Shown: positions 41,530 to 41,638 of the stretch, in pieces
Numbering within the stretch: position 1 is the first letter of the stretch
Layout: each line of letters opens with the position of its first letter
Assembly: GCF_057098645.1 (NCBI RefSeq)
Contig: NZ_CM169472.1
DNA: 64,000 bases
Direction: 5' to 3' (one strand)
The notes under the pieces: generated by a model
Databases searched by the model: none
The model's input: only the letters and a program-made list of their open reading frames with translations
Told to the model about the DNA's origin: nothing
Translations under genes and position numbers: made by a program

Positions 41530-41589
41530 ACCCTGTAACATCTGGCGGTAGCAATTCACCATAATCCAGGTAGACTATTCGCCTCTTTC

Positions 41590-41614
41590 AGCGCCTGCCT
41601 TGCAGGCGTTTTGC
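41590..41614 (+). terminator. Hairpin plus T-run between yceM and murJ (possible terminator/attenuator)
   Basis: CGCCTGCCTTGCAGGCG followed by TTTTG. Confidence 0.4.
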
Positions 41615-41638
41615 CCGTGGGTCTGGATTAGAACACCG

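Follow-up and report, generated by a model that had tools for sequence, protein, structure and literature searches.

A hairpin followed by TTTT lies between yceM and murJ. With moderate confidence we take it for a leaky intrinsic (Rho-independent) terminator of constitutive action, which closes the yceM operon and probably lowers the output of the murJ promoter as well. RNA polymerase coming from the rimJ promoters would transcribe rimJ, yceH and yceM and then the GC-rich hairpin (41590-41610) with its UUUU; about half of these transcripts would be released near position 41617, the remainder running on into murJ. Judging from its position only, the same terminator, at +8..+35 of the murJ leader, would also abort a fraction of the transcripts that start at the murJ promoter, and would thereby put a constant brake on production of the essential flippase.

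The element is of an ordinary kind and has not been individually studied; its RNA 3′ end and the murJ transcription start site (TSS) are already in public supplementary tables, and it adds one more case to the read-through terminators that genome-wide work has already shown to be pervasive. The product of murJ, the essential lipid II flippase of low copy number, is an antibiotic target, and promoter swaps and N-terminal fusions at the native murJ locus have proved troublesome. Knowledge of a conserved, probably leaky terminator in the 56-nt murJ leader, shared with the end of rimJ-yceH-yceM, would help strain construction and the reading of transcriptome data at the yceM-murJ junction.

The yceM-murJ hairpin and its T-run

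The stretch of DNA analysed (the window, 64,000 nt) has the local gene order rimJ, yceH, yceM, murJ, all on the + strand, with flgN, flgM and flgA convergent; gene identities are from the RefSeq annotation. The yceM stop codon TAA is at 41527..41529 (+ strand; sequence and annotation) and the annotated murJ coding sequence, for the lipid II flippase of 511 amino acids, is at 41639..43174 (+ strand; ATG 41639-41641). The span picked out by the sequence-only reading, 41530-41638, is exactly the yceM-murJ intergenic region of 109 nt. Window positions 41500-41680 show no differences from K-12 MG1655 and the published K-12 maps therefore apply directly; MG1655 (NC_000913.3) coordinates are window positions plus 1,086,200, anchored on the murJ ATG (41639 = 1127839). 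The window is E. coli DNA, and a 1.3-kb stretch of it was matched in 5,425 of 5,426 complete E. coli genomes.

The RNA hairpin AGCGCCUGC-CUU-GCAGGCGUU (41590..41610, + strand) is supported by folding, conservation and covariation. Its 5′ arm is at 41590-98, the CUU loop at 41599-41601 and the 3′ arm at 41602-10. The perfect 7-bp core consists of CGCCTGC (41592-98) and GCAGGCG (41602-08) around CTT (41599-41601), and is lengthened to 9 bp (41590-41610) by G-U and A-U pairs. The hairpin is 61-81 nt past the yceM stop and occupies +8..+28 of the murJ mRNA. The T-run TTTT (U4; 41609..41612, + strand) is followed by GCCCG, a weak U-tract by sequence and tail score, and ends 26 nt before the murJ ATG, in agreement with the earlier placement of the hairpin and TTTT about 25 nt before the murJ start.

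With its stem of 7-9 bp and loop of 3 nt, the structure lies within the range of intrinsic-terminator hairpins, which are GC-rich with a stem of ~5-14 bp and a loop of 3-8 nt. The hairpin alone has a folding energy of -14.5 kcal/mol, compared with -6.3 ± 2.0 kcal/mol for 200 shuffles, none of which was as good (z -4.15); the structure of the whole 134-nt region is not unusual (z -0.54). Pair probability of the hairpin is at least 0.94 in every transcript context, whether in nascent RNA started at the murJ promoter or in read-through RNA extended on its 5′ side by as much as 260 nt.

When the element class is defined as a perfect stem of at least 7 bp with at least 5 G/C, a loop of 3-8 nt and then TTTT, the 64-kb window has 13 matches (~7 distinct elements) compared with 0.13 ± 0.42 in 100 dinucleotide shuffles. 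Hairpins of this class followed by TTTT are not due to chance in the window. A simple terminator scan missed the yceM-murJ hairpin, only because the scan demands at least 5 T in 8. The T-tail score, computed in the style of d'Aubenton-Carafa and TransTermHP, is -4.12 at the hairpin. Its tail is thus weaker than those of three strong terminator-like window elements (-5.0 to -5.4), which fits a leaky site.

Other perfect GC-stem hairpins followed by T-runs are located at 13417-13438, 17521-17538 and 26134-26152 and, on the - strand, at 10128-10149, 33235-33256 and 54937-54958. Two, at 13417 and 26134, are scored on either strand, as a bidirectional terminator would be.

RNA 3′ ends and the murJ promoter

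SMRT-Cappable-seq (Yan 2018, PMC6131387) gave a 'novel TTS' at 1127817 for transcripts from the rimJ promoter (TSS 1125521). This RNA 3′ end of the rimJ-yceH-yceM transcripts is at 41617 on the + strand of the window (Yan 2018 Supplementary Data), 9 nt past the core stem and 7 nt past the extended stem, at +35 from the murJ TSS; an in vivo 3′ end 7-9 nt after the stem is what is expected of an intrinsic terminator. At 1127817, 24 reads end, 19 pass and 4 end in the next 50 bp, giving a read-through at the hairpin of ~44%, with a median read-through length past 1127817 of 678.5 nt (Yan 2018, PMC6131387). The operon variants in that study are rimJ-yceH-yceM, rimJ-yceH-yceM-murJ and murJ alone from 1127783. 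The proposal of a partial terminator made by the sequence-only reading is thus supported by 3′ ends at the hairpin together with partial read-through, and the pattern that it had named as counting against a terminator (read-through, no 3′ ends at the hairpin) is contradicted by this published full-length primary-transcript sequencing. The ~44% read-through can be put down to the short U-tract; an efficiency of ~50% is in turn higher than might be expected from only 4 U followed by GCCCG.

The TTS at 1127817 comes from a single dataset and is in the M9 sheet only, its absence from the Rich sheet possibly reflecting coverage. Oligo-dT mispriming has no apparent source, as there is no A-rich stretch at the 3′ end site. 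Neither yceM nor the murJ 5′ UTR has a 3′ end in the curated Term-seq lists of Adams 2021 (three conditions), and the TERMITe supplement has no 3′ end entry at the hairpin. The bicyclomycin-based Rho termination regions of Adams 2021 do not include the hairpin, which speaks indirectly for a Rho-independent site. A search of the older literature on the rimJ-mviM operon found nothing.

By poly(A)-tailing methods, a 3′ end left by an exonuclease that stops at a stable hairpin looks the same as one made by termination; we infer that the 3′ end at 41617 is made by termination and not by trimming. The alternative, that the hairpin is a 3′ exonuclease barrier, with transcripts stopping downstream, for example at a Rho region in murJ, and being trimmed back by PNPase or RNase II, is possible but unlikely. 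Trimming of Rho-terminated transcripts back to stem-loops was reportedly described by Dar and Sorek in 2018, and counts in its favour. So do the short U-tract and the REP-type hairpins lacking a T-run that substitute in some lineages (see below), and also a Rho termination region inside murJ at MG1655 1128462 (window ~42262; Rho score 4.04, p 2.9e-12; Adams 2021), which is ~645 nt past the hairpin 3′ end, so that the median read-through ends ~30 nt from it. Against a barrier, U4 directly follows the hairpin and T-richness after the stem is found in 55 of 55 distinct sequences, the 3′ end is at the canonical distance of 7-9 nt from the stem, and the existence of full-length four-gene transcripts indicates that Rho does not stop all read-through.

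The murJ TSS (+1) is at 41583 on the + strand, giving a 5′ UTR of 56 nt (Yan 2018; Kim 2012), and is supported by two independent datasets: TSS 1127783 in NC_000913.3 corresponds to window position 41583 (Yan 2018, PMC6131387), and TSS 1127006 in NC_000913.2 was reported with 35 reads and a 56-nt 5′ UTR (Kim 2012, PMC3415461). The upstream sequence in Kim 2012 (PMC3415461) ends in ...GGTAGACTATTCGCC; a Klebsiella TSS was not found among the rows listed in that study. The -10 hexamer of the murJ promoter, TAGACT (41571..41576, + strand), is 7 nt upstream of the TSS within the nearly invariant GGTAGACTA. Further upstream is a conserved promoter block, CTGTAACATCTG-N4-TAGCAATTC (41533..41557, + strand; 76 distinct sequences, 80 loci), part of the 51-nt upstream sequence given with the mapped TSS (Kim 2012, PMC3415461); it contains a poor -35-like hexamer, GTAGCA (41548-53) or TAGCAA (41549-54). 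Liu 2018 placed a divergent cat cassette directly after the yceM stop and viability was kept; as the insertion is tolerated, a native murJ promoter sufficient for viability lies in the intergenic region.

The promoter combines the poor -35 (GTAGCA/TAGTAA) with the nearly invariant GGTAGACTA and a GC-rich discriminator. Around -50..-39 it also carries the conserved CTGTAACATCTG, a possible activator or UP-like site.

In the leader, the TSS is 7 nt upstream of the hairpin, the U-run is at +27..+30, the 3′ end at +35 and the ATG at +57. Transcription from the murJ promoter begins before the hairpin, which places the terminator within the murJ leader; there it could not shield murJ from transcription arriving from further upstream and leave the transcripts of the murJ promoter untouched. 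Hence the suggestion that the hairpin separates yceM from murJ stands in part: it would end a portion of the yceM transcripts, but with the murJ promoter upstream of it the two units are not cleanly split. Between the hairpin and the ATG, the conserved TCTGGATT (41622..41629, + strand; family consensus TGTGGAA), with nearly invariant alignment columns, is probably the murJ ribosome-binding region. It sits at least 11 nt before the murJ ATG, which is far for a Shine-Dalgarno sequence.

Conservation across the Enterobacteriaceae

The comparative set consisted of 80 Enterobacteriaceae loci fetched with a MurJ query, and yceM is upstream of murJ in all 80. The promoter block, in the form CTGTAACATCTG-N4-TAGTAATTC-N13-GG-TAGACT, begins at the yceM stop and is kept almost everywhere; in the Citrobacter freundii complex and Salmonella the -10 is TACTAT. 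The hairpin was found in 55 distinct sequences, and 44 of these, from many genera, have the identical 7-bp core. Flanks and loop (2-8 nt in the 55 sequences) diverge while the core stem is kept, and in every one of the 55 there are 4-7 T among the 8 nt past the core stem. Covariation analysis showed that 95.2% of cells pair, with two-sided changes in 5 of the 9 pairs, for example CGCCCGC/GCGGGCG in Klebsiella and Raoultella; none of 500 shuffles was as good, and slid controls paired in 22-50%. RNAalifold, applied to 39 whole intergenic regions, gave the hairpin as the only conserved structure.

The palindrome, at +9..+27 of the murJ promoter, could in principle be a DNA operator for a transcription factor that binds as a dimer. 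It is perfect, in a position typical of a repressor site, and its half-site sequence is highly conserved; to our knowledge, however, it holds no recognised motif of a known factor, the half-sites are anywhere from 2 to 8 nt apart and the arms change together in Klebsiella/Raoultella and in two other loci (L027, L060), leaving an operator with very little probability. Since the loops vary from 2 to 8 nt, an RNA site is indicated rather than a DNA site.

Insertions of 100-290 nt (Buttiauxella, Cedecea and others) fall between the promoter and the hairpin, which despite them stays ~20-30 nt from the murJ ATG and not near the 5′ end; the predicted murJ 5′ UTR is 52-345 nt in other genera. In Citrobacter and Salmonella a retained GGGGTTTTGCC is preceded by ERIC and REP insertions and by further hairpins. 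Part of the Enterobacter cloacae complex has, in place of the E. coli-type hairpin, a REP-like one that lacks a T-run; with regard to the leaky-terminator reading, this could mean that a stable stem, and not termination, is the selected feature. As a control, the hairpin after the murJ stop was compared: its conservation does not extend beyond Escherichia, and other genera have unrelated hairpins there. Conservation of the stem at the sequence level, set against the turnover of the neighbouring terminator, is the one mildly unusual feature of the element.

These patterns bear on a further possibility, that the hairpin serves chiefly as a cis element in the murJ leader, acting on stability, on translation or through a trans-acting factor, with yceM termination as a side effect. 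The distance from hairpin to ATG (~20-30 nt), kept despite the 100-290-nt insertions, the identical core in 44 of 55 distinct sequences while flanks and loop diverge, and the complete turnover of the post-murJ hairpin between genera all speak for such a role. The hairpin is, however, not 5′-terminal (its unpaired 5′ flank is 7 nt in E. coli and much longer in other genera) and does not pair with the murJ start region, unrelated hairpins substitute for it in the Citrobacter/Salmonella and Enterobacter cloacae lineages, and it has no Rfam family and no known binding factor. We consider a primary leader function quite improbable.

ERIC-/REP-like inserts are present in L015, L016, L017 and L021 (Salmonella, Citrobacter), ~60-200 nt before the murJ ATG, and in the Enterobacter loci L028, L032, L039, L051, L053 and L067. 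With these repeats separating the murJ promoter from the ATG, the predicted leaders come to 144-309 nt.

Within E. coli, 5,409 of 5,425 genomes carry the 181 bp around the hairpin at 99% identity or more. The intergenic changes in two variant genomes are the first loop base and one base of the -35 region; in the more divergent genome there are two further differences near the beginning of murJ.

The hairpin after the murJ stop, TCCGGCCTGCAGTGCAGGCCGGA (window 43183-43205), has the core GCCTGC-N3-GCAGGC exactly as in the leader hairpin. This exact core occurs only twice in the 64 kb, where 0.28 occurrences are expected even with one mismatch. The shared core could be coincidence, REP-tail ancestry or something else.

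Regulation and comparison with known systems

The sequence-only reading had also offered an attenuator. As in an attenuator, the terminator is between the TSS (41583) and the start codon, with the hairpin at +8..+28 and the ATG at +57; no exclusive antiterminator fold, leader peptide or ligand- or protein-binding domain was found. Partition-function folding in eight transcript contexts gave no antiterminator fold, RNA from the murJ promoter has just 7 nt ahead of the hairpin, and a permissive Rfam scan of 40500-42500 gave only two chance-level matches, both outside the hairpin. The attenuator in the regulated sense is therefore not upheld, there being no alternative fold or leader peptide. Two candidate leader peptides were rejected, one starting at an in-frame TTG at 41600, which falls in the variable loop, and the other a 4-codon GUG ORF without a ribosome-binding site.

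A perfect 8-bp inverted repeat, TAATCCAG/CTGGATTA (41561-41568 and 41623-41630), brackets the -10, the TSS and the hairpin. It was rejected as a conserved switch, the pair not being kept in other genera. Among the transcripts, only those that read through contain the 5′ arm; in them, by minimum-free-energy folding, this arm could mask the murJ ribosome-binding region.

The element might still be a sequence-specific, promoter-proximal control element of murJ, with read-through tuned by growth condition or by a trans-acting factor, and if so it would tie MurJ supply to growth or to envelope state. Hints in this direction are the identical stem core shared by 44 of 55 sequences while the post-murJ terminator turns over between genera, the calling of the 3′ end in M9 only, and a reported MurJ abundance ~9-fold lower in minimal than in rich medium. 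We regard tuned control as distinctly doubtful and retain the constitutive, leaky terminator as the preferred reading.

The stable intergenic stem-loop resembles the REP/BIME hairpins of the malE-malF type, REP hairpins being able to protect upstream mRNA and partly stop transcription, and the corresponding site is occupied by REP elements in Citrobacter, Salmonella and some Enterobacter. Assignment of the hairpin itself to the REP/BIME elements was rejected: it has no similarity to the REP consensus, a T-run follows it and its core occurs only twice in 64 kb. The 181-bp region is at one place per E. coli genome, a count from a query that would miss other copies of the 21 nt. A 5′-terminal stabiliser of the ompA type was also rejected, with 7 unpaired 5′ nt, a variable distance from the TSS and a hairpin that is instead near the ATG.

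In that a terminator follows the TSS and precedes the coding sequence, the murJ leader is like the attenuators of the trp/pyrBI type and the 5′ UTR 3′ ends of Adams 2021, but unlike the trp/pyrBI attenuators it is without leader peptide, antiterminator or riboswitch. The resemblance to canonical E. coli Rho-independent terminators is in the GC-rich stem, short loop, adjoining U-run, 3′ end 7-9 nt further on and placement after a stop codon; unlike them, the yceM-murJ element has U4 followed by GCCCG, ~44% read-through and the promoter of the next gene upstream. In its partial stop within a gene series and step-down for the distal gene it is like the leaky internal terminators rpsU-dnaG T1 and rplL-rpoB; at the rpsU terminator 125 reads end and 264 pass (table of Yan 2018, PMC6131387). 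Unlike at rpsU-dnaG T1, the distal gene murJ has its own promoter, which starts transcription 7 nt upstream of the hairpin. By the criteria tested, the yceM-murJ hairpin belongs with the weak Rho-independent terminators inside operon series.
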